From assembly GCA_020057885.1 (NCBI GenBank), contig JAGVEX010000006.1:23850-87849 (forward strand): a DNA stretch of 64,000 bases, read 5' to 3'. This stretch comes from a bacterium. Lineage in GTDB: Bacteria; Patescibacteriota; Patescibacteriia; Veblenbacterales; UBA10138. Every line of letters starts with the position of its first letter. The first letter of the stretch is position 1. Below the pieces are notes generated by a model that saw only the letters and a program-made list of their open reading frames with translations, made no database searches and was not told the DNA's origin. Below are positions 6,293 through 53,990 of this stretch, piece by piece. A program made the position numbers and the translations under genes.

Positions 6293-7090
6293 GTGAAAAG
6301 ACTCATAATTATTAATGGCGTCACAGGCGCCTTGGGCAGCGCCTGCCTTGCTCTCTGCAGTCGCAATCCAGAAAATACAATTTATGGATGGAGTCGTAAA
6401 GGATTGCCCTATATGGATTTCCTAGTGTCAGGAATTATGCCCGATGTAACTTTAATTTGTTCCGTAGGCAAAGAAGATTTGAAAGGTTATCACATGCTCT
6501 TGGATAGAATTAATTTCTCGTTGTATGAGAAAGTAATCTATATCCATGCCCTAGGAGTATATCCCTTTGAAATTAGTCCAGAAGGAACAATTACGGTTAC
6601 TGACGACCACGATAAGGATGGTATCAATGACCTTGTCACTAAACTGTCCCACGACTTTTTCTTGAGCGTGCTGAATAAGCTTATTAAGAAAAGTGCCAGG
6701 GTGCAGGCTTTGATTTTCGGTGGACTGGTTGATAAGCATGAGCCGTTAGTTCATCAATCATGGTGGAAAACCATGAAGAAAATTAAGGCGCGATGTATTG
6801 AGGTTGTGTCTAAAAACAAAAAAGTTAGCGTTATGGTGCTTAATATCAGTAGTGTTATTTGTCCTAATGAGCTGATCACTCGGCCATTCGTCTTTAGGGA
6901 TACCGACGCTAAGTCTTGTTTTTGGCTAATGCCGCACGAGGTCGCGGAAGAGGTAGATCGTCTGACCACTGGTGACTCTCAAGGTTTTTACGAGTGCGAG
7001 TTATTTCATCCATCAGGGTACTATCGACCAGGGTACTATGCGGATGAAAATTTCACTGTGCGAAAAAAACGGGAGCTGGGTATTCTATAG
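6293..7090 (+). CDS. Hypothetical Rossmann-like (SDR-like) protein
   Basis: GTG start 6 nt after AAGGAG; N-terminal KRLIIINGVTGALGSACLAL resembles a dinucleotide-binding glycine motif; atypical codon usage; the ORF track extends upstream to 6218. Confidence 0.5.
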   Translation: MKRLIIINGVTGALGSACLALCSRNPENTIYGWSRKGLPYMDFLVSGIMPDVTLICSVGKEDLKGYHMLLDRINFSLYEKVIYIHALGVYPFEISPEGTITVTDDHDKDGINDLVTKLSHDFFLSVLNKLIKKSARVQALIFGGLVDKHEPLVHQSWWKTMKKIKARCIEVVSKNKKVSVMVLNISSVICPNELITRPFVFRDTDAKSCFWLMPHEVAEEVDRLTTGDSQGFYECELFHPSGYYRPGYYADENFTVRKKRELGIL

Positions 7091-7275: not shown

Positions 7276-7974
7276 ATGAAACATTTTGATATTATTTCCA
7301 TTTTTCCAAATTCGCTTGATTCGTACTTTAGTACGAGTATTTTAAAGCGCGCGCAAGAAAAGAAACTTATTAAAATTCAAACACATGATTTGCGGAAATA
7401 TTCCACTGATAAGCACCACAAAGTTGACGACCGTGTGTATGGCGGTGGGGCGGGAATGGTGATGAAAGTTGAACCTATCGTTCGTGCGTTGCACGAAATC
7501 AAATTTAAAAATCCCTGCCTTGCCGGCAGGCAGGAAAAATCAAAAATTAAAATTAAAGAACGAATTATTTTACTTGCGGCGAATGGGAAGCAATTTACCC
7601 AAAAAGACGCCAAGCGGCTAGCCAAGTATGAACGTTTAATTTTTATCTGCGGTCGGTACGAAGGCGTGGATGCACGCGTGGAAAAATTTATTGATGAAAA
7701 AATTTCAATAGGTAATTATGTCGTAACCGGCGGTGAACTTCCAGCGGCAATTATTATTGATGCCGTGTCACGCATGATCCCTGGCGTGGTAGGCAAAGAA
7801 GAGTCGGTGCAGAACGAATCTTTTTCTGAAGGAGTTAATTTGGAGCATCCGCAGTATACTCGCCCTGAGGTTTTTGTGGCAGGTAAAAAAAAGCTAATAG
7901 TCCCCAAAGTTTTACTAGGTGGAAATCACAGGAATATAGCCGTCTGGCGAGCAAAGAAATCAAAAGGTAAATAA
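7276..7974 (+). CDS. trmD: tRNA (guanine37-N1)-methyltransferase
   Basis: MKHFDIISIFP...VDDRVYGGGAGMVMKVEPI...LLAANGKQF...IFICGRYEGVDARV...GNYVVTGGELPAAIIIDAVSR: TrmD motifs; the ORF track starts at an upstream TTG, and ATG 7276 is more likely. Confidence 0.85.
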   Translation: MKHFDIISIFPNSLDSYFSTSILKRAQEKKLIKIQTHDLRKYSTDKHHKVDDRVYGGGAGMVMKVEPIVRALHEIKFKNPCLAGRQEKSKIKIKERIILLAANGKQFTQKDAKRLAKYERLIFICGRYEGVDARVEKFIDEKISIGNYVVTGGELPAAIIIDAVSRMIPGVVGKEESVQNESFSEGVNLEHPQYTRPEVFVAGKKKLIVPKVLLGGNHRNIAVWRAKKSKGK

Positions 7975-8768: not shown

Positions 8769-8918
8769 ACAGGAGCTTACTTTATAAGTAACTTTCAAAA
8801 CTGGCACATAAAATACTTCTCTATCAATTCGTTCGGAGGAGAAAAAACAGTGGTACTTGAGCTCAAAGCTCTCTAGTATCTCTGTTTTTTCTACGCCATA
8901 AATAGTGTAGAGAAAATT

Positions 8919-8931
8919 TGTTCTTTAATAA
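8919..8931 (+). promoter_or_regulatory. boxA-like antitermination element in rRNA leader
   Basis: TGTTCTTTAATAA versus the boxA consensus TGCTCTTTAACAA (2 mismatches), located in the leader between promoter and 16S. Confidence 0.3.
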
Positions 8932-9090
8932 GTGATAGGAAGAACCAAGTACGTCAGTTTCTATCTATGCGAATTTATTTTTGCATAAGATGATTGGTTT
9001 TAGGTTCTAGCAACACTTGCTGTGTTGCCTGTAACCTGGCTGTCCAATTTAAAAAACAGCCGAATTTATAGAGCCTTCAATACTCTAAAA

Positions 9091-10596
<1,506 letters not shown>

Positions 10597-10934
10597 AGGG
10601 AGTTTTCTCTAGGGTGGTTATACACTACCTTTAATTTTATTAAAGATGTCGTATGATCACTATAGGTCGTTTTATTCCATTTTTTGGGATAACTCCGGAA
10701 TTGACACCTCATTACCCGTAAGGGTTTATGTAGGTAGTATGAATTTCTTCCTCTCACTTATTAGAGAACAAAATAAAATCCAGCTTATTAAAAAGCTGGA
10801 TTTTGTATAATAGACTTGATTTACAAAATCTATTTTGCTACTATACGGGAGCGATTTTGGCTCGTATATAAATGGTAGTATTATTAAGCAGTTAGACTGC
10901 TTGCCATAAACTATTAGCCATTTGCTAAATTAGG

Positions 10935-11011
10935 GGGTGTGTAGCTCAGCTGGTTAGAGCACTTCACTGATAATGAAGAGGCCGATGGTTCGAGTCCATC
11001 CACACCCACCA
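10935..11011 (+). tRNA. tRNA-Ile (anticodon GAT) including encoded CCA
   Basis: GGGTGTGTAGCTCAGCTGGTTAGAGCACTTCACTGATAATGAAGAGGCCGATGGTTCGAGTCCATCCACACCCACCA folds as a cloverleaf; 7-bp acceptor stem GGGTGTG/CACACCC; anticodon loop CTGATAA. Confidence 0.9.
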
Positions 11012-11202
11012 GAGCTCTGCTCGCGTAATCTGCGGGAAGAGCTCTGGTTTTGTTTAGGGGACGAGAAGGGCGCGAGAGAAAGCGAGCGAGCATAGCTTTC
11101 GGTGCGCAGCGCCCAGGTGCCCGAGTCGGAGCGAGGGAGAGTCCCTGCCTACCGGATTTCGGCGAGCTCAATCGAGTCGCAGGCAGGCATCCACACCCAC
11201 CA
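11012..11202. repeat. GC-rich 176-nt insert followed by a 15-nt perfect direct repeat (CATCCACACCCACCA) of the tRNA-Ile 3' end
   Basis: The 15-mer occurs at 10997-11011 and again at 11188-11202; the insert holds the palindrome CCTGCCT..AGGCAGG and a 50-nt core shared with 43326-43384. Confidence 0.55.
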
Positions 11203-11390
11203 CTCGACTCGCTTCACGTTTCGCGCTGAGCTCAACATTGAAGCCTCGCTCGTGGTAAACCAAAAAGCGAGGCGAGTGCCCTGAGTTAATCGAAGGGCAA
11301 CAAAATGATTTAATATGACCCACAGGGTCGTTTTTTATTGTTTTGAAAAAAGTGTTAGAATTAAGGTAGTTAATTATTAAATAAACATTT

Positions 11391-12956
11391 ATGATAACCG
11401 ATCAATTGCGGGATTATGTTAAACAGCAACTTGCTTTGGGTGTTACCAAGGATGATGTTAAAGCCAGACTTGTGGCTCGCGGCTGGGTTCAAAATGATAT
11501 TGAAGCTGTTTTAGCTCCCTCTGTTCAAGGTACGGCCCCATCTCAACCTAGTGTACAATCACAACCATTATCACCGTTTCAAGCTTTAGCACAACAACCA
11601 AATCCCGAAGCTAATACACAGCCAACTGTGTCTACTCAGCAGGTTTCACCGCTTAAGCCAGTTTCGACTCCTACTGTTATGCCACAAGTTTCTTTGCAGG
11701 CGGCTATGAGCGCTTCGCCTACTTTTGCACAAAATTCTAAGTCTAGTAAAAAAATATGGCTAGCAGCTGGTTTGGCAGTGGTGGTTTTATTATTAGCCGG
11801 TGGAGCGTGGGCTTATTATACTTATTATTTGCAGGCACCAGAAAGAGTTTTAGTAAAAATGCTCGATAAATTAGCCGAGGTGAAGTCGAGCGAATATTCA
11901 GGTGAAATAAAAATTGAAACAGATTTTAGTAAATATAATTCTTATTCGCTTTTACCTTCCAATAATAAAGATAATCAGGCTCAAACTGGAAAATTAACAA
12001 TTAAGTTTAATGGTATTTCAGAAACGCAAGTACAGGATTTAAATGATTTAAAAATGGCTGCCTCAATTACAGCTGTTCCAGAAAATATGGCCGAGCTTAA
12101 TAGTAATTTAGGTATTGAACTTAGGATGTTGGGTAAAATTATGTTTATTAAATTAACCGAAGTTCCTAACTTAGGGTTAGTTGATTTGAGTACCATTAAA
12201 GATCAGTGGATAAGATTTGATTTTGATGCTATGGCCAAACAATTTGGTGCGGCAGAAAAAGTTCAAGAGTTTGAAACACAACAGAAAGCAGTTTTAGATA
12301 AATTTTCCCAGTTGCGCCAAGCCGTTATAACTTCTGGTTTATTTAAGGTAGCCGAAAAACTATCAGGGGAGACAATCGATGGCGTTTCTACCTATCATTA
12401 TAAAATTATTTTAGATAAAGATGGTTTGCAAAATTTCTTCACCCAAGTTAATAAAATTATTAATGAATCCGAACTTACCACAGATCAACAAACTGAGCTT
12501 GAGACTAATTTAAGCAAGTTAGCGAGCTTACCGGCAGGAGAAATTTGGATTGGTAAAAAGGATTATTTACCCCGTAAAATTTATTTTGAAAATACTACGC
12601 CAGCCGATGAATCAACTTCTTCCACCAAAATCACCGTTACTTATTTTATGTCCAAATTTAATGAGCCAGTGCAGGTTGATATTCCAGAACAATCAAAATC
12701 AATTGAGGAGCTTGTTGCTGGTATAATGGGTGATTTAAATACGGAGTCCAATATTCCTACACCAGATTTAAACAAAGATTCAGATAATGACGGTTTGTCA
12801 GATTATCTGGAAAGTTATTATGGCACTAATCCTAACAATCCAGATACAGATGGTGATGGCTACAAAGATGGCGATGAAGTTAAAAATGGATATAATCCTA
12901 ATGGTTCGGGTAAGGAAATTTTACCGCCACCCCAGCCCGCTACTCTTCCTGAATGA
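11391..12956 (+). CDS. Hypothetical membrane-anchored surface protein with C-terminal Asp-rich calcium-binding-like repeats
   Basis: Pro/Gln-rich N-terminus, one TM helix (IWLAAGLAVVVLLLAGGAWAYY), C-terminal DSDNDGLSDY..NPDTDGDGYKDGDE (thrombospondin-type-3-like DxDxDG). Confidence 0.6.
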   Translation: MITDQLRDYVKQQLALGVTKDDVKARLVARGWVQNDIEAVLAPSVQGTAPSQPSVQSQPLSPFQALAQQPNPEANTQPTVSTQQVSPLKPVSTPTVMPQVSLQAAMSASPTFAQNSKSSKKIWLAAGLAVVVLLLAGGAWAYYTYYLQAPERVLVKMLDKLAEVKSSEYSGEIKIETDFSKYNSYSLLPSNNKDNQAQTGKLTIKFNGISETQVQDLNDLKMAASITAVPENMAELNSNLGIELRMLGKIMFIKLTEVPNLGLVDLSTIKDQWIRFDFDAMAKQFGAAEKVQEFETQQKAVLDKFSQLRQAVITSGLFKVAEKLSGETIDGVSTYHYKIILDKDGLQNFFTQVNKIINESELTTDQQTELETNLSKLASLPAGEIWIGKKDYLPRKIYFENTTPADESTSSTKITVTYFMSKFNEPVQVDIPEQSKSIEELVAGIMGDLNTESNIPTPDLNKDSDNDGLSDYLESYYGTNPNNPDTDGDGYKDGDEVKNGYNPNGSGKEILPPPQPATLPE

Positions 12957-13018: not shown

Positions 13019-13465
13019 GTTTATATTCCAACTGATTATTCTTTCGTTTTCATGTTTACCATGCTGGAATTGTATATTTATTATTTTTTTACCTTTTATT
13101 TTTAATTTATCTGCCCATTCAATAGCGACTATAGTAGAGGGTTCGTTTAAATGATCATTTAAGCCTATTTTTGAAAATTCAATTCTTGGTAGGCGGTAAC
13201 AATCCACATGTACCAATTGTTTAATGCGGCCATGTTTAACAGTATATACTTTCATTAGCACAAAAGTCGGACTGGTGATTGTTTGTTTAACACCGAGCCT
13301 TTTAGCTAACCCTTTAAGAAAAGTGGTTTTGCCCCCACCTAAATTGCCATTAAGTGTTAGTATTTCCCCACCTCTTAATTGTTGGGCAATTTTTTGTCCC
13401 AACCTTTCAGTTTCTTGCGTACTGTGGGAGATGATTTTATTCTTGATTCTTGATTCTTGATTCAT
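13016..13465 (-). CDS. tsaE: tRNA threonylcarbamoyladenosine biosynthesis protein TsaE (P-loop ATPase)
   Basis: LKGGEILTLNGNLGGGKTTFLKGLAKRLGV...ITSPTFVLMKVY...VHVDCYRL; start chosen at MNQES, while the ORF track begins further upstream. Confidence 0.8.
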   Translation of the reverse strand: MNQESRIKNKIISHSTQETERLGQKIAQQLRGGEILTLNGNLGGGKTTFLKGLAKRLGVKQTITSPTFVLMKVYTVKHGRIKQLVHVDCYRLPRIEFSKIGLNDHLNEPSTIVAIEWADKLKIKGKKIINIQFQHGKHENERIISWNIN

Positions 13466-13475
13466 AATTCTTGTT

Positions 13476-14537
13476 TTAATTCCACAGTTCCCAATTAGCA
13501 TTGGCTTGTAGTTTTTGCCAACTTTTAATAAGTTTATTCGGCTTGAAATTTTTAATCTTTATGGCCGCCGCTAGGGCAATCATGGCAGCATTGTCACCAG
13601 TAAAACTTAATTCCGGAAAGAATAATTTTACATTTGGCATATCTATTTTAACTTGTTTAGTGAGTTCTTGGCGCAAAGCTTGGTTGGCAGAAACCCCGCC
13701 GCTTACTATTATACTGCGCGCTTTATATTGTTTAGCCGCCCGTAAAGTTTTATTTATTAAAACATCTAAACTAGCCTGTTGAAACGAAGCGCAAATATCA
13801 GCCTTTAGTTTAGTTGTAATTTGCGCGGTTTGGTATTTTTGCAAAGTGTAAAGTACGGCTGTTTTAAGTCCAGAAAAACTAAAATTATAATCATTATTTT
13901 TTAACAGTGGTCGGGGAAAAGTAAAGGCCTGTTTATTGCCTTGTAAAGCTAGTTTGGCAACTTGTGGCCCGCCGGGATATGGCAGTTTTAACATTTTAGC
14001 TACCTTGTCAAAAGCTTCACCGGCGGCGTCATCTAAAGTTTTGCCTAAAAATTTGCGTTGCCCCAATGAACGCATTAAATAAAGTTCAGTATGTCCGCCT
14101 GAAATTACCAAAGCTACTGCTGGCCAAGTAGATGCTTTGGAGACTAGTGGCCAATTGGTTGGCGAGAGAAACGGACTAACCAAGTGTCCCTCGATATGAT
14201 TTATGCCAAGCAGAGGCTTGTGCCACGCCGCCGCCAGGGTTTTAGCAGTTTCTACACCTACTTGTAGTGCCGTAATAAGCCCCGGGCCAGAGGTTACAGC
14301 CATAAGATCAATCTGTGACGGTTTAACTTTTGCCTGGTTAAGCGCGTCGTGGAGTAGGGGAACAATAGTTTCATTGTGACGTCTGGCTGCTAACTCCGGT
14401 ACCACTCCGCCCAAACGAGCGTGCAATTTGGTTTGTGAAGAAATAATAATTGATTCAATTTTAAGCTTGCCCCTGTTCAGGTTTAATAAAGCAAGTGAGG
14501 TTTCGTCGCAAGAGGTTTCAATACCAAGTATTCGCAT
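13476..14537 (-). CDS. tsaD: tRNA N6-adenosine threonylcarbamoyltransferase TsaD (Kae1/YgjD family)
   Basis: MRILGIETSCDETSLALL...GINHIEGH...ISGGHTEL...SGGVSANQ; metal-binding His pair conserved. Confidence 0.9.
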   Translation of the reverse strand: MRILGIETSCDETSLALLNLNRGKLKIESIIISSQTKLHARLGGVVPELAARRHNETIVPLLHDALNQAKVKPSQIDLMAVTSGPGLITALQVGVETAKTLAAAWHKPLLGINHIEGHLVSPFLSPTNWPLVSKASTWPAVALVISGGHTELYLMRSLGQRKFLGKTLDDAAGEAFDKVAKMLKLPYPGGPQVAKLALQGNKQAFTFPRPLLKNNDYNFSFSGLKTAVLYTLQKYQTAQITTKLKADICASFQQASLDVLINKTLRAAKQYKARSIIVSGGVSANQALRQELTKQVKIDMPNVKLFFPELSFTGDNAAMIALAAAIKIKNFKPNKLIKSWQKLQANANWELWN

Positions 14538-20457: not shown

Positions 20458-20697
20458 CTAAATAGCTTGTTTGAGTAGTGTTGTTATTTCATCAGTACTA
20501 TGCAATTGGCCAACCATAATAGCTTTGCCGTTTACCATTAAAATAGGACTTTGGATAAAACCCATAGCGATTATTTTTTCTACATCGGTTATGTAATCAA
20601 CTGTAACCTCAAGGCCAAGAGTTTTTACAGCCTCCTGAGTACGGTCAAATAATTTTTTACACTTAGGGCAACCACTACCCATAACTTCAATTTTCAT
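20458..20697 (-). CDS. Thioredoxin-fold redox-active disulfide protein 2-like
   Basis: MKIEVMGSGCPKCKKL CxxC motif at N-terminus, about 79 aa, matches the small TM0979/MTH895-type family. Confidence 0.7.
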   Translation of the reverse strand: MKIEVMGSGCPKCKKLFDRTQEAVKTLGLEVTVDYITDVEKIIAMGFIQSPILMVNGKAIMVGQLHSTDEITTLLKQAI

Positions 20698-20742
20698 AAT
20701 TTAATTATATCACCAAACTAAAAAACCACCCTCACCAGGTGG

Positions 20743-20960
20743 CTCTAGAATTTTTAGCCAAGCATGCCCCGTACCGTCCGCCCGTGGCGGATTGGTACGT
20801 GAGTGGGAGTGAGGTGACTGTCCGCCGTAGTTTTAGCGAAGGAGGAGAACCCCTAGTTCTAGAACTTAGGGAGTGGTGGAAGCTGGGGAAGATGGTTAAA
20901 GAGGGGCAACTTAGCCCTATAGATGTTATATAGACCCTAGGTTGAGGTACTGCCAAGAGG
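20743..20960 (-). ncRNA. Candidate structured ncRNA or structured 3' UTR (GC-rich island), terminated by the hairpin at 20720-20742
   Basis: About 220-nt GC-rich segment with multiple stable helices (for example GTACCGTCCGCC-cgt-GGCGGATTGGTAC) between two AT-rich genes; the ORFs predicted here overlap on both strands. Confidence 0.25.
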
Positions 20961-21021: not shown

Positions 21022-21702
21022 TTATGGCTGTTCAGGCGCTTTGTACATTTCACTATTATAAGCATTTTCACATAATGCACGTTCCTCTGCTTCGTTTATT
21101 TTTGGGCAGATCGTGTCATTCACTTTAGCACAAGCTATCCATTTAGCTTGAGCGTCAGCAGAATTATCTGAATTATATTTTTCAGTACATGGTTTATCTA
21201 ATTCACCATCTCTAAAATTTCTATAACAGCTAGCTTTTTCTAGAATATTATCTTGTTTACTACATAAACCCAATAAAGAATAATTTTTATTCTGTGCCGC
21301 ATAGGTATATACATTTCTGATACACTCCTTAGTACTTCTTTCTACCCATTTTTGTTTATCTAATTCGGGTAAATTATTGTCGAATCCTTCCCCCCTTGTT
21401 GTTTGTAATTTACAAATATTTATATCGCCTTTAATAATGGCTACCTGACTCACGCAATAATTATAAAATCGCACTGCTGTACTGTTAAGTAACTCATCAC
21501 ATTGTTCTAATCCTCTTCCTTTGTCATAAGCAAAGCCAGCAAGGTTACTTACTGATAATATTTTATCTTTATCTACAGGTATCTCAATTTTATCTTTAGA
21601 CTCCACATATTGCGATGAAGTATTATTTTTGGATAAAGAACAACTCGCTCCCAACAGAATTAAGAATCCAGATAAAATTAAAAAGGTATAATATTTTCTC
21701 AT
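21022..21702 (-). CDS. Hypothetical Cys-rich lipoprotein
   Basis: Lipobox LLGASC; 14 Cys; no family recognised. Confidence 0.5.
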   Translation of the reverse strand: MRKYYTFLILSGFLILLGASCSLSKNNTSSQYVESKDKIEIPVDKDKILSVSNLAGFAYDKGRGLEQCDELLNSTAVRFYNYCVSQVAIIKGDINICKLQTTRGEGFDNNLPELDKQKWVERSTKECIRNVYTYAAQNKNYSLLGLCSKQDNILEKASCYRNFRDGELDKPCTEKYNSDNSADAQAKWIACAKVNDTICPKINEAEERALCENAYNSEMYKAPEQP

Positions 21703-21740
21703 ATATTTAAGTTAATAATGATGATTTAATTATATCACTA

Positions 21741-21768
21741 AAACAAAAAACCACCCTCATCAGGTGGT
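21741..21768 (-). terminator. Rho-independent terminator after tRNA-Glu (minus strand)
   Basis: Minus-strand CCACCTGATGAGGGTGG followed by TTTTTTGTTTT. Confidence 0.5.
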
Positions 21769-21777
21769 TGAAAGTGT

Positions 21778-21852
21778 TGGTAGCCCCACCGGGAATCGAA
21801 CCCGAATTCCCACATTGAAAGCGTGGTGTCCTAACCATTAGACGATGGGGCC
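21778..21852 (-). tRNA. tRNA-Glu (anticodon TTC) with encoded CCA
   Basis: Minus-strand GGCCCCATCGTCTAATGGTTAGGACACCACGCTTTCAATGTGGGAATTCGGGTTCGATTCCCGGTGGGGCTACCA; anticodon loop CTTTCAA; Glu-type D-loop. Confidence 0.85.
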
Positions 21853-21858
21853 AAATTT

Positions 21859-21975
21859 TGGTGGGCCGGTTAAAAAGCGTGGTGCTTGCCCTGTACTTCT
21901 GCCTCAGCGGATAGTGTTGTACCCTAACCATTACCCGTCTCCGCTTGAAGCTACGACGGGCAGGGACGATTGGGC
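21859..21975 (-). other. tRNA-like remnant or unresolved structured RNA upstream of tRNA-Glu
   Basis: Minus strand shares TAATGGTTAGG and CACCACGCTTT blocks with tRNA-Glu and ends GGCCCACCA 6 nt before tRNA-Glu, but no complete cloverleaf could be folded by eye. Confidence 0.2.
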
Positions 21976-22049
21976 CACAGTGTTGCTTATTGTAGTGTGA
22001 TATAAATTTTACGTCAAGGTGTACACTTGGTATACTAATTATATCATTT

Positions 22050-28568: not shown

Positions 28569-28726
28569 TGATTAATATAACCCCGCGGCCGTGGGGTGGC
28601 TGGAATCGGGAAGGTAAACACAGAACACAAACTGGGCAAGAGCCCAGTTTGTGTTATTTGCCCTGAGGGCTATTTTTTGGTAGAGTATTGTTTGCTATAA
28701 TCTACTATAATAAATATAAGTGGCCT

Positions 28727-28823
28727 GGTAGCTCATCACTCCGCGAGACCTAGCGTAGCTACGGCAAGCAGTAAGGCAGAGGTCTGTCCCGCTACGCGGG
28801 ATCTGGCGTAGCCATGACAAAAC
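28727..28823. repeat. Two tandem units (type A then type B) of a roughly 45-nt two-hairpin repeat, upstream of the GIY-YIG ORF
   Basis: U1 tcactccgcgagacc-TAGCgtaGCTA-cggcaa; U2 ggtctgtcccgctacgcgggatc-TGGCgtaGCCA-tgacaaaac; related units occur at 29166-29265. Confidence 0.6.
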
Positions 28824-28831
28824 TATTGTTT

Positions 28832-29086
28832 ATGAAGTATTACGTCTACATTTTAGTTAGTCTGGCAAATGATGATATTTATGTAGGTAGTACAGCCGAT
28901 GTTCAAGTTCGCCTTCACTTACATAATCAAGGTAAGGTAAAATCTACTAAAGGATATCGCCCTTGGCGTTTATTGGAGTATTATGAGTATATAACACGTG
29001 CTGAAGCAGTTAAAGCTGAACGGTTTTATAAATCTCATCACCAAAAAGAAATATTAAAAAATAAATATGGCCATGTGGTGAAGTAG
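28832..29086 (+). CDS. GIY-YIG nuclease family protein (small standalone, UPF0213/YhbQ-like)
   Basis: MKYYVYILVSLANDDIYVGSTADVQVRLHLHNQGK...RPW.L: GIY-YIG motifs; the ORF 3' end (last 18 nt including the stop) overlaps the 5' end of tRNA-Cys; the ORF track starts at 28814. Confidence 0.7.
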   Translation: MKYYVYILVSLANDDIYVGSTADVQVRLHLHNQGKVKSTKGYRPWRLLEYYEYITRAEAVKAERFYKSHHQKEILKNKYGHVVK

Positions 29087-29145
29087 TCTAACACGGCGGT
29101 CTGCAAAACCGCTATTCGCGGGTGCGAATCCCGCCATGGCCTCCA
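29069..29145 (+). tRNA. tRNA-Cys (anticodon GCA) with encoded CCA
   Basis: GGCCATGTGGTGAAGTAGTCTAACACGGCGGTCTGCAAAACCGCTATTCGCGGGTGCGAATCCCGCCATGGCCTCCA; acceptor GGCCATG/CATGGCC; anticodon stem GCGGT/ACCGC with loop CTGCAAA; T-arm GCGGG/CCCGC. Confidence 0.85.
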
Positions 29146-29165: not shown

Positions 29166-29265
29166 GGTCTGTCCCGCTACGTGGGATCTCCCGTAGGGAC
29201 GACAAAACCTCTATACATGGGTGTCTCACTCCGCGAGATCTGGCGTAGCCACGACAATTTTCTTG
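29166..29265. repeat. Two further units (type B then type A) of the two-hairpin repeat, downstream of tRNA-Cys
   Basis: U3 ggtctgtcccgctacgtgggatc-TCCCgtaGGGA-cgacaaaacc; U4 tctcactccgcgagatc-TGGCgtaGCCA-cgacaatttt; the 4-bp stem of the GTA-loop hairpin varies with compensatory changes. Confidence 0.6.
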
Positions 29266-29349
29266 TCTGACGAGGCCAGATGCCCAGGCCTCCATTACGT
29301 TACAATTGCCATCCGCCACTGGTGGGTGGTTTTATGATAAACTAATATT

Positions 29350-37295: not shown

Positions 37296-37375
37296 CGTCC
37301 CTGCCTGCCGGTAGGCAGGTCGCCCCGTATAGTCCCGCCTGTGGCAGGACTTGTTCGGGGTCGCCAGTTGGTTTG
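37296..37375. repeat. GC-rich palindromic repeat (CCCTGCCTGCCGGTAGGCAGG plus second hairpin) in the uvrB/ruvA divergent intergenic region
   Basis: CCTGCCT/AGGCAGG stem; same motif family as 11143, 43283, 43328 and 43435. Confidence 0.5.
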
Positions 37376-40327: not shown

Positions 40328-40461
40328 TAGATAAATAAAGTAGTTTGGCCCCTGTAGTTTCCTCCTACGCTCTCGTTGCACTTGAGCTCCGGCGGACAAG
40401 TAATACTAAACAAAGTATTACTCGCTCATCGAAGCTCTGGTGCTAGCCAGAGCATGGTTTG

Positions 40462-40536
40462 GCCCCCGTCGTTTAATGGATAGGACACGAGATTCCGGAT
40501 CTCGTAATAGAGGTTCGATTCCTCTCGGGGGCACCA
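40462..40536 (+). tRNA. tRNA-Arg (anticodon CCG) with encoded CCA
   Basis: GCCCCCGTCGTTTAATGGATAGGACACGAGATTCCGGATCTCGTAATAGAGGTTCGATTCCTCTCGGGGGCACCA; acceptor GCCCCCG/CGGGGGC; anticodon loop TTCCGGA. Confidence 0.85.
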
Positions 40537-40620
40537 CGTAAAACTCATTTCATTCGCCACGTGGTAAAAAGATTGGACACTCGCGTCTCGTCCCGTGACG
40601 AGTATCAGCGAGTTATACGA

Positions 40621-40642
40621 GATTCGATTCCTCTCGGGGGCA
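40621..40642 (+). repeat. 22-nt direct repeat of the tRNA-Arg T-arm/3' acceptor end, 85 nt downstream of the tRNA
   Basis: GATTCGATTCCTCTCGGGGGCA versus tRNA GGTTCGATTCCTCTCGGGGGCA; an additional 18-nt copy of the tRNA 5' end plus upstream flank sits at 40344-40360. Confidence 0.55.
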
Positions 40643-40801: not shown

Positions 40802-43204
40802 ATGGACTTTGCCCAAGCTGTGGCTGATACTTTTATGCCCTCACACACCAACCCAGTGGTTAAATACCTGGATTTGGTTTTGGATTGGGGGTTAAAAATT
40901 TTAATAGCCTTAGTCCCCTTAACATTTTTACCGTGGACATATGAGATTTTTGAATTTAATAAACAGTTTTTGTTATTAGGCTTGGGTGTAATTTTATTGG
41001 CTGTCTGGGTAACCAAGTCAGTTATTTCGCGTGAGGCCAAGCTGGTTAAATCGCCTTTAAATTGGGTAGTTTTGGCGTTTTTGGCGGCGGCAGTATTAAG
41101 TGTGGTATTTTCAGTTGATCAAATTACTTCAATTTTAGGTTTTTACGGCAGATTTAATGGTGGCTTGGTGAGCATAGTTGGTTACCTTATATTTTATTTT
41201 TTGGTTTTACAACTAAGCCAGCGTGAAAATGCTAAGCGTCAATTTTTTGGTTATTGGCTTGGTGGAGTAGGGCTTGGTGCTTTGGTTTTATTACTGCAGA
41301 TTTTAGGAGTGCGTTTTTTTAGCTTTCCAGCTGCGCAAGCAATTAATTTCTCGCCCTTGGGTAGTTCACTGAATTCTGTTGTATTAATATTAACCGCCAG
41401 TTTACCATTAGCTTTGTTCTTTGCTAAAGATAGCCGCCAGGCATTAACGCGTTGGCTAAGTTTAGGCTTTGTTATTCTTACCTTAGTACTCGTTTTTTTG
41501 ATTGATTATCAGTTGGGTTGGATTGGATTATTAATAAGTTCAGCAGTGTGGTTAGCTCTAATATTTTGGAAAAATGAGATAGTTGGTTTTAAATGGACAA
41601 TTTTGCCTTCACTTGCCTTGCTTTTGGCGGTAGTTGGTTGGCCGTTAATTACTACTAAACTTACGCGGCTTAATGTGCCAGTAGAAGTAAACCTTTCTAT
41701 GTCAGCTAGTTGGAAAATTGCTTGGGAAAATATTAAGCTGAATCCTGTTTTAGGCACTGGGCCAGAAACATTTATTTACGGTTTTTCCAAATATAAACCA
41801 ACCAATTTTAATGACTCTGATTTTTGGGCTTTCCGTTTTGACAAAGCCTCTTCTGAATTTGCCCAAATGTTTGGTACTGTTGGTTTTTTGGGTTTGGCTG
41901 CTTATTTGTCCTTATTTATATTAGCTTTGTATTTGAGCTGGCGCTTACTAAAAAATCAGGGTAGTTCAGAATGGTATATATCGGGCGCTATTATTACCTC
42001 ATTCTTAGTTTTGTTGGTGGGAAATATATTTTATTTTTCCAATACTACGCTAGCTATGTTTATGTGGTTTATATTGGCGCTGTTGGCCTCTTGGAGTTCA
42101 AAGGGTACGCGTAGTTGGTCGCTTAAAGGTTCACCACGAATGTCTTTCTTATTCTCTTTTGGTTTGGCAGTAGTGGTTTTGTTGGCTGTTGGCGTTTGGT
42201 TTGGTATTGGCCGTTTGTGGGCGGCTGATAATGCTTATATGCAGGCGCAAATTAAGGGTAATAATGTAAATACTTTGGAGCAGGCACAGGTTGATATGAC
42301 CAAAGCGGTTAATCTTAATCCATGGCGCGATATTTATCGTATTGGTTTGGCGCAGGTTGATTTGGCCTTGGCCAACAGAGTGGCCAAACAAACAGCTGGC
42401 AAAACCGAAGCCGAACGCCAAGCACAAATTACAAAATTGCAACAGTATATTGCCGATTCAATTGCGGCTGCTAAATCGGCCACTGAATTATCCAAAGAGA
42501 GCGTGTCTAATTGGGAAGCACTTGGCTCTATTTATCGTGGTACAGTGTTATTTGCACGCGATGCCGAAAGTTGGGTAATAGATTCTTTCCAAAAAGCTAT
42601 TAAACTCGAGCCTTCTAATCCAGCACTTTATACCGAGCTTGGTAAGGCTTATTTAATTGCTGGCAATCGTCAGCAACAACAAGCCTCTGGTTCCACCACC
42701 GATGAAGCTGCTAAAGCTAAATTGGCCGGCGAAGCTACTATTAATATTAATAAGGCTATAGAACAATTCGAGTTGGCTATTAAACTTAAGAGCAATTATA
42801 CCCCAGCTCACTTTAACGAAGCGCTGGCTTATGAGTTGCAAGGCAAGATTGATCAGGCGATTGATAAACTAGAGCGCATTCGTTCTTATAATCAAACAGA
42901 TGTAGATGTGCTTTATGAGCTTGGTAGTTTGTATTATGGCAAAGCAGTGTATGATAAAGCGGCCACAGTATTTAAATCCGTTACTAGTTTAGTGCCTAAC
43001 CATGCCAATGCTCATTACGGACTTTCGTTGGTCTACCAAAAAACTGGCGTGTTAGATAAAGCAATTGAGGAAATGCAAAAAGTGTTGGATCTAAATCCTG
43101 GCAATCAGCAAATTCAACAGCAACTTGATGCTTTGAAAAAAGGCGAAACACAAAATCCGGTAACACCAACGCCGTCTACCAACACCCCAGCACCTAAAAA
43201 GTAG
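40802..43204 (+). CDS. O-antigen ligase-like (Wzy_C) polytopic membrane protein fused to C-terminal TPR repeats
   Basis: About 12 TM helices in the N-terminal 450 aa; C-terminal region with repeated TPR-like A..Y..G/A..Y.....A...F..A pattern. Confidence 0.6.
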   Translation: MDFAQAVADTFMPSHTNPVVKYLDLVLDWGLKILIALVPLTFLPWTYEIFEFNKQFLLLGLGVILLAVWVTKSVISREAKLVKSPLNWVVLAFLAAAVLSVVFSVDQITSILGFYGRFNGGLVSIVGYLIFYFLVLQLSQRENAKRQFFGYWLGGVGLGALVLLLQILGVRFFSFPAAQAINFSPLGSSLNSVVLILTASLPLALFFAKDSRQALTRWLSLGFVILTLVLVFLIDYQLGWIGLLISSAVWLALIFWKNEIVGFKWTILPSLALLLAVVGWPLITTKLTRLNVPVEVNLSMSASWKIAWENIKLNPVLGTGPETFIYGFSKYKPTNFNDSDFWAFRFDKASSEFAQMFGTVGFLGLAAYLSLFILALYLSWRLLKNQGSSEWYISGAIITSFLVLLVGNIFYFSNTTLAMFMWFILALLASWSSKGTRSWSLKGSPRMSFLFSFGLAVVVLLAVGVWFGIGRLWAADNAYMQAQIKGNNVNTLEQAQVDMTKAVNLNPWRDIYRIGLAQVDLALANRVAKQTAGKTEAERQAQITKLQQYIADSIAAAKSATELSKESVSNWEALGSIYRGTVLFARDAESWVIDSFQKAIKLEPSNPALYTELGKAYLIAGNRQQQQASGSTTDEAAKAKLAGEATININKAIEQFELAIKLKSNYTPAHFNEALAYELQGKIDQAIDKLERIRSYNQTDVDVLYELGSLYYGKAVYDKAATVFKSVTSLVPNHANAHYGLSLVYQKTGVLDKAIEEMQKVLDLNPGNQQIQQQLDALKKGETQNPVTPTPSTNTPAPKK

Positions 43205-43282
43205 CGCGGGTAACGGTTAAGAAATTTAAAAGTACCCCCAAAGCGGGGGTACTTTTGATTTAATGAAGCTCGCATGGGTTTA

Positions 43283-43454
43283 CTTGCCTGCCGATAGGGC
43301 AGGCGTTTAGTTATTTTTTTGCGGAATCCCTGCCTTGCCGGATTTCGGCGAGCCCAATCGAGTCGCAGGCAGGCACCGAAGCAATCATTTCAACTGCGAG
43401 GGCTGAACATTTATAACTTAACGGCCAAGGCTTTCCCTGCCTGCGGTAGGCAGG
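43283..43454. repeat. Three GC-rich palindromic repeat copies in one 280-nt intergenic region
   Basis: TTGCCTGCC-gatag-GGCAGGCG; CCCTGCCTTGCCGGATTTCGGCGAGCCCAATCGAGTCGCAGGCAGG (50-nt core shared with 11143-11187); CCCTGCCTGCGGTAGGCAGG. Confidence 0.55.
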
Positions 43455-43487
43455 TGCAAAGGTGGATAAACTTGCTATACTAGCTTT

Positions 43488-44825
43488 ATGCGACTTAAGA
43501 CTTTTATTCGTTCTTTAGCGCCCCAGTGGCTTTTGAGTTTGTATCATTTTAAGCGGTCGGTTTTGGCGGCGATAATTTATGGTTTTCCGGCCAAGCGTTT
43601 GATTATTATTGGCGTAACCGGCACTAAAGGAAAAACCACTACCAGTGCTATGATATGGTATTTATTGCAAGCCGCTGGGCACAAAGCTGGGCTTATTTCT
43701 ACTGCGCAAATTTCTATTGGCGCCGAGACCAAATTAAATGATTTAAAAATGACCATGCCCAGTCCGTTTGTTTTGCAGAGATTATTGCGTCGTATGGTAA
43801 AAGTTGGTTGCAAATACGCTGTGGTAGAAACTTCGTCCGAAGGCTTGGCGCAATGGCGACACCTAGGGATCAATTACGACATAGCGGTTTTTACCAATCT
43901 TGATCCGGAACACTTGGAAACACATGGCAGTTATGAAAATTATCGCGCGGCTAAGGGTAAATTGTTTAAGGTTTTAGTGAAGAGTAAAATTAAAAAAATT
44001 CCTACTCTTGCCGCAGTTATAAAAACTTCAATTATTAATATTGATGATAGGGAATCAGCTTACTTTTTACAGTTTCCAGTGGCGCGTAAAATAGGTTTTA
44101 CAATAGAGGGCAAGGTGGTACCCAATTTAGCTACTGTTTATTCGGCTGATATTAAAGATGTAACACCACATCACTCAAGCTTTACAGTTAATAACAAGGA
44201 AGTATTTTTGCCCGTGGGCGGGAATTTTAATATAGCGAACGCCACAGCGGCTTTAGCAGTAGTGGCAACTTTGGGCGTGCCGCTGGCGAGAGCGGCAGAT
44301 AGTCTAGCGGATTTTTCAGGCACACCAGGTAGGTTAGAATTTGTAATTGCCAAACCATTTAGTGTGGTGGTTGATTATGCGCACACCCCAGAGTCGCTCG
44401 AGGCCGTTTACAAGACTTTAAAAGGTACAGATGGGCGTTTGCTCGCTGTACTTGGTTCTTGCGGTGGCGGGCGCGATAAAGCCAAACGCGAAGTTTTGGG
44501 GCGGCTCGCTGGCAAGTATGCGGATTTGGTTTTTGTGACAAACGAAGATCCTTATGACGAAGATCCACATATAATTATTGGCGCAGTGGCGCGCGGCGCC
44601 CGTACGGCTGGTAAAAAAGACGGCGAGAATTTGTGGGTTAATCTAGACAGGCGTTCAGCAATTGCCCAAGCGTTGAAAGTGGCTAAACCAGGCGATACCG
44701 TGGTTATTACCGGCAAAGGCGCGGAACAGTGGCTTTGTGTGGCAGGAGGTAAAAAAACTCCATGGGATGATAGGAGAGTTGTGAGAGAGGAGTTTGATAA
44801 ATTGAATAGTGAAACTAATTTATAG
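43488..44825 (+). CDS. murE: Mur ligase family enzyme, MurE-like (UDP-MurNAc-tripeptide synthetase)
   Basis: IIGVTGTKGKTTTSAMI P-loop, VVVDYAHTPESLEAVYKTL (MurE-type DYAHTP motif), C-terminal Mur ligase domain; short (445 aa), so family-level call. Confidence 0.6.
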   Translation: MRLKTFIRSLAPQWLLSLYHFKRSVLAAIIYGFPAKRLIIIGVTGTKGKTTTSAMIWYLLQAAGHKAGLISTAQISIGAETKLNDLKMTMPSPFVLQRLLRRMVKVGCKYAVVETSSEGLAQWRHLGINYDIAVFTNLDPEHLETHGSYENYRAAKGKLFKVLVKSKIKKIPTLAAVIKTSIINIDDRESAYFLQFPVARKIGFTIEGKVVPNLATVYSADIKDVTPHHSSFTVNNKEVFLPVGGNFNIANATAALAVVATLGVPLARAADSLADFSGTPGRLEFVIAKPFSVVVDYAHTPESLEAVYKTLKGTDGRLLAVLGSCGGGRDKAKREVLGRLAGKYADLVFVTNEDPYDEDPHIIIGAVARGARTAGKKDGENLWVNLDRRSAIAQALKVAKPGDTVVITGKGAEQWLCVAGGKKTPWDDRRVVREEFDKLNSETNL

Positions 44826-53830: not shown

Positions 53831-53899
53831 AATTTCTACCTACCCTATATTACAATCAGGACGGCGAGTAAACACGACAGAAAAATGTAACTTTTTAAA

Positions 53900-53922
53900 C
53901 CACCTGATAAGGGTGGTTTTTG
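53900..53922 (+). terminator. Rho-independent terminator after rpoC
   Basis: CCACCTGATAAGGGTGG+TTTTT; reverse complement nearly identical to the hairpins at 20726 and 21751. Confidence 0.55.
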
Positions 53923-53990
53923 GTATAAAAAGAGGACTCGCATTTTATACTAAAGATGCGAGTCCCTATTATTGCACTTATTATGGAGTG

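Follow-up and report, generated by a model that had tools for sequence, protein, structure and literature searches.

A short gene-less insert bounded by a duplicated tRNA-Ile 3' end, and a palindrome inserted within it, in a Patescibacteria genome

INTRODUCTION

What kind of DNA can follow an intact tRNA gene directly and yet be closed by a second copy of that gene's own 3' end? The question is raised by a 64-kb stretch of A+T-rich DNA (40% G+C) from an uncultured, small-genome member of the Patescibacteria (candidate phyla radiation [CPR]), part of contig JAGVEX010000006.1 and hereafter called the window. It carries a tRNA-Ile (GAT) gene that is intact and encodes its CCA (positions 10935 to 11011, plus strand; called by ARAGORN, with 77 bits against the Rfam tRNA model), followed by G+C-rich DNA and a repeat of the tRNA end. 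As Williams reportedly set out in 2002, tyrosine-integrase elements integrate in tRNA genes at a T-loop sublocation and leave attL and attR repeats behind, and an earlier note on this DNA had taken the locus for such a footprint, either decayed or left by a miniature element. Here, we show that the insert is a composite of a ~132-nt module, made of a hairpin and an 88-nt GCGAG-rich segment, and a separate 44-nt core, and we weigh how the two came to lie where they do.

RESULTS

The tRNA end is duplicated over 20 nucleotides

The 15-mer CATCCACACCCACCA that closes the tRNA gene (10997 to 11011) recurs exactly at 11188 to 11202, just as the earlier note had it, with no third site even when two mismatches are allowed and a chance expectation for the second match of 0.01. 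The 176 nt between the two copies are indeed G+C rich, at 62% against 40% for the window. The repeat itself, however, is longer than had been noticed. We reached syntenic loci of relatives through homologues of the downstream protein and of TsaD, and one of them, L019 (TsaD 86% identical to that of the window; an independent assembly from a different sample), carries the 20-mer GAGTCCATCCACACCCACCA, which is GAGTC followed by CATCCACACCCACCA, intact and twice. Because the 20-mer is uninterrupted there, the true repeat is one of 20 nt, equivalent to tRNA positions 57 to 76 from the T-loop to the CCA. Its proximal copy lies at 10992 to 11011, and its distal copy is split in the window, between 11143 and 11188, by the 44-nt core into the first 5 nt (GAGTC, 11139 to 11143, placed by alignment with L019) and the last 15 nt (11188 to 11202), all on the plus strand.

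The same comparison dissects the insert. In L019 segment A comes after tRNA-Ile and the hairpin and runs straight into GAGTCCATCCACACCCACCA, the two 20-mers being separated by 127 nt, and the site that reads GAGTC, core, CATCC in the window is the uninterrupted GAGTCCATCC. Since GAGTC abuts CATCC at this orthologous site, the core is a precise later insertion without target duplication, and the 176 nt that had been read as one element are a ~132-nt module that subsequently took up an independent 44 nt.

The module begins with a terminator-like hairpin (11009 to 11055, plus strand) whose predicted 16-pair stem includes the CCA of the tRNA and is followed by TTTTGTTT (TCTTGTTT in L019); the stem-loop proper spans 11009 to 11047, and a consensus terminator scan made no call for it. 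Of the 44 positions of the hairpin, 7 differ from L019, yet none of the 16 predicted pairs is lost: one pair has changed on both sides, and two G-U pairs have become A-U. Segment A follows (11056 to 11143, plus strand, its last 5 nt being the GAGTC of the distal repeat), an 88-nt stretch of purine-rich, GCGAG-rich DNA of 67% G+C. The words GCGAG and CTCGC occur 10 times between 11012 and 11300 where 2.4 are expected, an enrichment of about fourfold, and this is the sole such cluster in the window. The insert had been called highly structured, a description that suits the stem-loop (11009 to 11047) and the core, both of which fold well, but not the 88-nt segment A, which folds at the level of shuffled sequence (z about 0); the fold z for 11012 to 11300 as a whole is -2.4.

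A search of 10600 to 11400 against Rfam 15, with E values up to 10, matched the tRNA alone and returned no family for the insert, nor did one at gathering thresholds, and no open reading frame (ORF) of 11012 to 11300 is conserved with L019. Several candidates were rejected in turn: a conserved small ORF, as the 44-nt core, absent from L019, interrupts the 59-codon frame at 11050 to 11229; a transfer-messenger RNA or tRNA-like gene, as ARAGORN calls none and the acceptor strand that would pair with the distal repeat is missing; and a group I intron of the kind that Patescibacteria carry in tRNAs (PMC13011429), as the insert is too short, has no Rfam match, and follows a tRNA that is already intact.

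Relatives lack the module, with one exception

Empty sites are the norm among the tRNA-Ile loci that we compared. The exact tRNA-Ile allele of the window stands without the insert in L029, a more distant relative (TsaD 66% identical); none of 15 GTDB reference species with the same 25-nt T-arm/acceptor end has a second copy of it; and L018 is without the insert too, its tRNA-Ile differing in T-arm and acceptor, with the shared terminator ~48 nt past the tRNA. These comparisons bear out the claim that inserted DNA is bracketed here by a duplicated tRNA 3' end, and with empty sites so prevalent, the module, present in the window and in L019, was most simply gained once, before these two split.

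Segment A is identical between the window and L019 at 85 of 88 positions (97%), whereas the flanking spacers are 87 to 91% identical and the neighboring gene 77% (DNA); past the distal repeat the two cannot be aligned at all. On these alignments segment A may be more conserved than its surroundings, a difference that is only suggestive (Fisher p = 0.016 for segment A against the hairpin). A decayed remnant, as the insert had been called, is a poor description of a module that is common to two species, with segment A 97% identical and the pairing of the hairpin kept; the sequence that has become unalignable lies beyond the repeat.

The leader ...AAATTAG that precedes the 5' end of tRNA-Ile is conserved in relatives, and CTTCACG, shortly past the distal repeat (11212 to 11218), is similar to what comes after the tRNA in L018 and in L027. 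For these reasons the distal copy looks like the original end of the gene, and the incoming DNA looks, from sequence comparison, like the proximal copy, the hairpin, and segment A. BLAST found no old 5' tRNA fragment upstream of the tRNA-Ile of the window and no trace of tRNA positions 1 to 56 in the insert.

The distal repeat is followed by segment B (11203 to 11300, plus strand), a G+C-rich, lineage-specific stretch with hairpins at 11243 to 11273 and 11278 to 11298 that cannot be aligned with L019, where ~219 A+T-richer nucleotides stand instead. Beyond it lies the ancestral end of the tRNA-Ile unit, an intrinsic terminator (11315 to 11340, plus strand; found by terminator scan) that is kept in L018 and L019 and is common to all relatives.

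The same layout follows other tRNA genes

We searched for tRNA-end duplicates at 72 tRNA genes in 290 kb, comprising the window and the fetched loci. Three loci share one layout, in which the tRNA and a terminator or, at tRNA-Ile, the terminator-like hairpin are followed by 125 to 180 nt of G+C-rich DNA and then by a T-loop-to-CCA repeat: the tRNA-Ile locus, the tRNA-Pro of L005 (the last 21 nt, from position 56, present twice and separated by 176 nt), and the tRNA-Phe of L013 (the last 20 nt, from position 57, duplicated together with a 34-nt terminator as a 54-nt repeat whose copies are about 125 nt apart). All the duplicates lie within 400 nt of their genes, so the small size looks intrinsic, not the leftover of a large island. 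When the Ile, Pro, Phe, and Arg inserts (the last described below) were aligned, no convincing overall homology emerged and only short motifs proved to be shared, among them the 12-mer GGGACGAGAAGG, which is confined to the Ile module of the window and L019 and the Pro module of L005. In L014, a 5'-truncated second tRNA-Pro lies 68 nt past an intact one. The insert of L013 (6009 to 6153, minus strand) contains a long hairpin, formed by an inverted copy of part of the tRNA with the direct CAGTTCGAT that follows it, and the insert as a whole is much more stably folded than its shuffled versions (z = -4.1).

The core belongs to a family of palindromes

The core (11144 to 11187, plus strand; absent from L019) is a G+C-rich palindrome with a 7-bp closing stem, CCTGCCT/AGGCAGG, and two small hairpins inside the predicted fold. 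That it recurs in the window with no tRNA nearby had been observed before, and a second long copy does lie at 43329 to 43373 (plus strand; 35 of 36 nt identical over the shared block), between a gene with tetratricopeptide repeat (TPR)/O-antigen ligase domains and a Mur ligase gene (both by Pfam). The view that a miniature mobile element is involved holds for the core, with other sites in the window and in L002, an unrelated metagenome contig of 53% G+C. L002 has two near-identical long cores, between genes that by eye, with no domain search, appear to be type IV pilus genes; their central 33 nt are those of the window, so that this interior is identical in genomes of 40% and 53% G+C. There are two long and four short copies in the 64-kb window, where none is expected, and two long and two short copies in L002. 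In all four long copies (two per sequence) the closing stem encloses a 30-nt interior, and all four are oriented as their flanking genes.

The short hairpins, whose stem encloses few nucleotides, were found by a family scan of the window at 37300 to 37319 (CCTGCCTGCCGGTAGGCAGG), at 43287 to 43303 (CCTGCCGATAGGGCAGG), at 43436 to 43454 (CCTGCCTGCGGTAGGCAGG), and, in frame inside trmD, at 7514 to 7534 (CCTGCCTTGCCGGCAGGCAGG). Short hairpins also occur in L002, L005, L009, and L025, and L025 has a core variant with a different interior. Palindromic hairpins lie inside old tRNA fragments in several places: the core of the window, L005 and L009 (at positions 31/32), L027 (12/13), and L025 (7/8). 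By exact matching, the core was missing from 185,579 reference genomes and from viral contigs, and L002 was the sole metagenome match; Rfam had nothing credible for the second copy (43150 to 43520).

Comparators for the core are the REP (repetitive extragenic palindrome) and PATE sequences, which are palindromes related to IS200/IS605, the Rickettsia palindromic elements, and the GC clusters of yeast mitochondria. Like these, the core is a short, G+C-rich, imperfect palindrome with several copies, mostly intergenic and precisely inserted without target duplication; like the Rickettsia elements, its family has a member in frame in a protein gene (trmD); and like the GC clusters, it makes G+C islands in an A+T-rich genome. 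It differs from the comparators in having no GTAG/CGTC tag and no Y1 transposase or RAYT (REP-associated tyrosine transposase) among the scanned ORFs of the window, in its 33-nt interior, unchanged between genomes of 40% and 53% G+C, and in the shared orientation of all four long copies with their flanking genes. We conclude that the core is very probably an independent insertion of a REP/PATE-like kind.

Two further observations concern this family. The hairpin in trmD, read as CCCTGCCTTGCCGGCAGGCAGG (7513 to 7534), encodes NPCLAGRQ in a variable loop of TrmD and has AAAAATC on both sides; the TrmD of L029 is without the hairpin, and that of L027 has four copies of the repeat CACTCGC at that place. 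The cores and short hairpins of L002 (4700 to 4800, 5560 to 5610, and 8940 to 9060) lie within A+T-rich imperfect inverted repeats, AAATCCTAAATTCGAA and TTAGAATTTCGGATTT, an arrangement that suggests a larger composite intergenic repeat.

Nested tRNA genes and adjoining GIY-YIG ORFs

A second pattern, nesting, in which a complete new tRNA stands between old fragments, was encountered in the same 290 kb, where all four GIY-YIG ORFs found lie within 250 nt of a tRNA gene. In L005 (5600 to 5971) and L009 (3596 to 4060), a GIY-YIG ORF lies in an insert and runs into the 5' end of a new tRNA-Gly, whereas L011 has a plain, uninterrupted tRNA-Phe/tRNA-Gly pair (6675 to 6825). In L009 as compared with L011, the ORF and the new tRNA-Gly have been inserted between positions 47 and 48 of an older tRNA-Gly, and the two copies differ at position 45, the old fragment having the G45 of the L011 type and the new copy C45. 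The old part in L005 and L009 (positions 1 to 47) abuts the tRNA-Phe, and its hairpin at 31/32 is a CCTGCC hairpin of 20 nt. No relatives of the GIY-YIG protein were found in viral contigs.

The intact tRNA-Arg of the window (40462 to 40536) is nested between old fragments and G+C-rich inserts: upstream, an old 5' fragment that includes 5 leader nucleotides, gtttgGCCCCTGTAGTTT (40343 to 40360; BLAST), and, 82 nt past the intact gene, an old 3' fragment, GAGATTCGATTCCTCTCGGGGGCA (40619 to 40642, plus strand; 23 of 24 nt identical, no CCA; BLAST E = 4e-5). In L025, a CCTGCC hairpin and a new tRNA-Ile, the latter between the arms of an 11-nt inverted repeat (CCCCGCCACCT/AGGTGGCGGGG), interrupt an old tRNA-Ile whose 5' and 3' parts have the complementary acceptor strands GGGCGTG and CACGCCC. 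In L027, an old 5' fragment stands at the ancestral position and the new gene ~135 nt downstream. Less certainly, the tRNA-Cys of the window (29069 to 29145) is a further case of old and new tRNAs nested.

Around these loci we made several side observations. A 90-aa GIY-YIG ORF (28814 to 29086) runs into the 5' end of the tRNA-Cys; the unit of the two is bracketed by G+C-rich repeats in the order a-b...b-a (28736 to 28823 and 29166 to 29257), and an outer pair, GGCCTGGTAGCTCA (28722 to 28735) and CCAGGCCTCCA (about 29286 to 29296), resembles both ends of an earlier tRNA gene. The tRNA-Arg locus has a 17-mer, ACGAGTATCAGCGAGTT, in common with L025 (13670 to 13686, in the opposite orientation), where the surrounding 13230 to 13800 (minus strand) is layered debris, including a GGGTGTG..TAGC fragment that has a core-family element at its positions 7/8 and more T-arm- and acceptor-like pieces downstream of the new tRNA-Ile. 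Upstream of the tRNA-Glu of the window (21778 to 21852, minus strand), a tRNA-like 5' half, TAATGGTTAGG ... CACCACGCTTT, with an interruption of ~38 nt, occupies 21874 to 21933; further G+C-rich islands lie near this gene (20741 to 20831 and 21927 to 21986), and a 54-nt direct repeat (20689 to 20742 and 21714 to 21767; 85% identical) with the hairpin AAAAAACCACCCTCAYCAGGTGG brackets an unannotated ORF (21022 to 21702) beside it. Hairpins similar to AAAAAACCACCCTCAYCAGGTGG are found at 686 to 728 and 53881 to 53923.

The search for a parent element

Our Pfam scan covered 49 ORFs of the window, i.e., 48 of at least 100 aa and the 90-aa GIY-YIG ORF; TsaE, TsaD, two large ORFs between 46.4 and 53.8 kb, and four ORFs of at least 100 aa overlapping rRNA or larger genes stood outside it. 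No Y1 (HUH) transposase or RAYT was among the 49. Scans of viral contigs with the 20-mer and with segment A found nothing, and BLAST of 11012 to 11300 returned nothing from phage and plasmid collections; a parent element was likewise missing from the 290 kb of related sequence. The suggestion of a MITE-like (miniature inverted-repeat transposable element) module is not borne out, as the ends, GAGCTCTG... and ...GAGGGA, are by eye not inverted repeats and there is no short target-site duplication; a casposon or MITE is ruled out by the lack of terminal inverted repeats. For a homing cassette, no endonuclease ORF was found in the insert, GIY-YIG ORFs being present at other tRNAs only.

The surroundings of the locus

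A 16S rRNA gene (9092 to 10594) lies upstream of the tRNA-Ile, flanked by a 28-nt processing stem (8917 to 8944 and 10745 to 10772) and closed by a bidirectional terminator-like hairpin (10775 to 10804); no 23S gene follows it within the window. A promoter-like TTGATT-17 nt-TACTAT (10816 to 10844, plus strand), read from the sequence, precedes the tRNA-Ile unit and is equally placed in L019, L027, and L029; it falls below the threshold of a consensus scan, so that the promoter is inferred from its conservation only. The tRNA-Ile appears to be a transcription unit of its own, apart from the 16S gene. From 11391 onward come the promoter and the start of a gene for a TSP3-repeat protein.

DISCUSSION

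Origin of the module

The reading that we favor, at chances that we put at about even, is that a non-autonomous, att-like miniature module entered the tRNA-Ile gene, regenerating the end of the tRNA, and was later hit by a 44-nt palindrome. In a common ancestor with L019, a gene-less module would have entered tRNA-Ile in the T-loop, between positions 56 and 57, bringing its own copy of positions 57 to 76, a terminator-like hairpin, and the 88-nt GCGAG-rich segment. The gene would thereby have been rebuilt from positions 1 to 56 of the host and 57 to 76 of the module, and the original 3' end of the host pushed ~130 nt downstream, ahead of its original trailer and terminator; the geometry would be that of attL and attR when an element integrates site-specifically at the T-loop sublocation of tRNA genes. 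In a second step, confined to this lineage, the CCTGCC...GGCAGG palindrome would have entered the displaced 3' end between GAGTC and CATCC. Three independent breakpoints at 56/57, a repeat that runs to the CCA, an intact gene, and empty sites in relatives fit a site-specific insertion that regenerates the tRNA end. The ~130-nt unit encodes no enzyme, and any mobility would therefore need an enzyme supplied in trans; we infer this supply, the direction of events, and the site-specific mechanism.

Several observations weigh against this reading. No tyrosine or serine recombinase, transposase, or nuclease lies by the insert, no recombinase or transposase is among the 49 scanned ORFs, and no recombinase is among five ORFs scanned beside the inserts of L005 and L013; the idea of a tyrosine-integrase footprint keeps the T-loop-to-CCA repeat and the empty sites in its favor and lacks an integrase or transposase among the scanned ORFs. 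By eye, the DNA ahead of the distal repeat has no recognizable second core-binding arm resembling the T-stem. A single recombinase is not normally expected to act on Ile, Pro, and Phe genes alike, so a matching tRNA end has to be brought by each module itself. The insert of L013 opens with an exact inverted copy of tRNA positions 43 to 58, a feature more suggestive of break repair than of conservative site-specific recombination. For segment A, the extra conservation reaches only marginal significance (binomial p = 0.018; against the flanks, Fisher p = 0.06). TsaD identities (L019 and L018, 91%; window and L019, 86%; window and L018, 84%) make L018 the sister of L019, and its lack of the insert forces us to assume a secondary loss or allele replacement; we read the state of L018 as a secondary allele replacement rather than as an ancestral empty site.

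The best of the alternatives, although we consider it unlikely, is a tandem duplication of tRNA-Ile and its terminator, after which the second copy decayed and was overwritten by deletions and palindromes until its last 20 nt were left. Such a history is suggested by L013, whose 54-nt repeat takes in the terminator as well as the tRNA end, by the truncated second tRNA-Pro of L014, and by the palindromic hairpins that do land in old tRNA fragments (in the window, L005, L009, L027, and L025). Random decay, however, is unlike three independent breaks at the same 56/57, nothing ahead of the distal 20 nt can be recognized although these are themselves perfect, positions 1 to 56 have left no trace for BLAST, and segment A appears conserved rather than decaying.

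Less probable than duplication is that the locus is a relic of nuclease-driven tRNA replacement, in which a small GIY-YIG protein cuts a tRNA gene and repair copies in a cassette, the Ile module being an ORF-less descendant. GIY-YIG ORFs do lie directly beside tRNA genes (tRNA-Cys in the window, tRNA-Gly in L005 and L009), the insertion at 47/48 in L009 relative to L011 has left tRNA-Gly copies that differ at position 45, old tRNAs enclose new ones at Ile in L025, at Arg in the window, and tentatively at Cys there too, the inverted T-arm copy of L013 suggests break repair, and phage T4 offers a precedent in SegB, a free-standing GIY-YIG homing endonuclease that sits in a tRNA gene cluster (PMC2330249). 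The Ile insert, however, has no ORF, and the rebuilt tRNA-Ile is the presumed target itself, so that the donor would not be immune to cutting; cleavage by the proteins seen here is presumed by analogy, and homing is not the function of every small GIY-YIG protein.

Slimmer still are the chances that the insert is a functional small RNA with a tRNA-derived end, or a protein-binding DNA, of which segment A and the tail are kept, an explanation that is compatible with any origin. The identity of segment A at 85 of 88 positions next to a gene at 77% (DNA), the perfect distal repeat in both species, and the fourfold enrichment of GCGAG/CTCGC would be explained by it. Against these stand the lack of an Rfam match at E values up to 10, the folding of segment A as shuffled sequence, its place behind a terminator-like hairpin with no visible promoter, a tail that tolerated a 44-nt insertion, and the weakness of the statistics. 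A chance repeat or assembly artifact can practically be set aside, with 0.01 matches expected and the same arrangement in the independent L019 assembly from a different sample.

A broader and speculative account, which we think improbable as a whole, is that tRNA genes of this lineage are routinely overwritten by tiny self-contained cassettes that replace what they displace. The cargo of such a cassette may be a whole new tRNA, sometimes with a fused GIY-YIG gene, or a T-loop-to-CCA end with a terminator, and the process may amount to gene-replacement homing without intron or integrase that leaves nested old fragments behind. The Ile module may then be a non-autonomous member and the CCTGCC palindromes a second mobile layer with a preference for disabled fragments.

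Known systems

Partial tRNA genes left by integrating elements have been documented (PMC9897764). The insertion of a tRNA-end-regenerating module, as we favor it, resembles the att scars of integrases in having an intact gene at the proximal junction, a displaced fragment at the distal one, and empty sites in relatives. It is unlike them in its interior of ~130 nt with neither integrase nor cargo, in lacking a recognizable core-site arm, in the same small size at Ile, Pro, and Phe genes, and in an internal segment that appears conserved.

Cis-mobilizable elements (CIMEs) are bounded by att sites and moved in trans, and are kilobases long and derived from identifiable integrative and conjugative elements (ICEs). 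The module is like them in its att-like bounding repeats, in having no recombinase of its own, and in its would-be dependence on an enzyme encoded elsewhere; it is unlike them in its ~130 nt and in having no parent element in the 290 kb or in the viral, phage, or plasmid collections. The nested loci recall T4 SegB in having a GIY-YIG gene among tRNA genes, where, in T4, cleavage of the rival allele drives inheritance of a tRNA region. They differ in that they lie on a bacterial chromosome, that old fragments flank a new, complete tRNA, and that the Ile insert has no nuclease gene; any such activity here is supposed by analogy.

Implications for tRNA genes in the Patescibacteria

Duplication of a tRNA end is a textbook matter; here, it bounds a ~130-nt gene-less unit in two species and not the scar of a large island, and tRNA genes for other amino acids, in other Patescibacteria, show the same layout. 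In the papers that our literature searches returned there is no description of ~130-nt gene-less modules with T-loop-to-CCA repeats, of nested tRNA-in-tRNA loci, or of the CCTGCC family. Together, the modules, the nested loci, and the GIY-YIG genes fused to tRNA genes suggest that tRNA genes in these very small genomes turn over by way of small insertion cassettes. If so, this turnover would explain why the acceptor stems of tRNA-Ile differ among close relatives, would affect the annotation of tRNAs in these genomes, and would point to an enzyme that acts on the T-loop DNA of tRNA genes.

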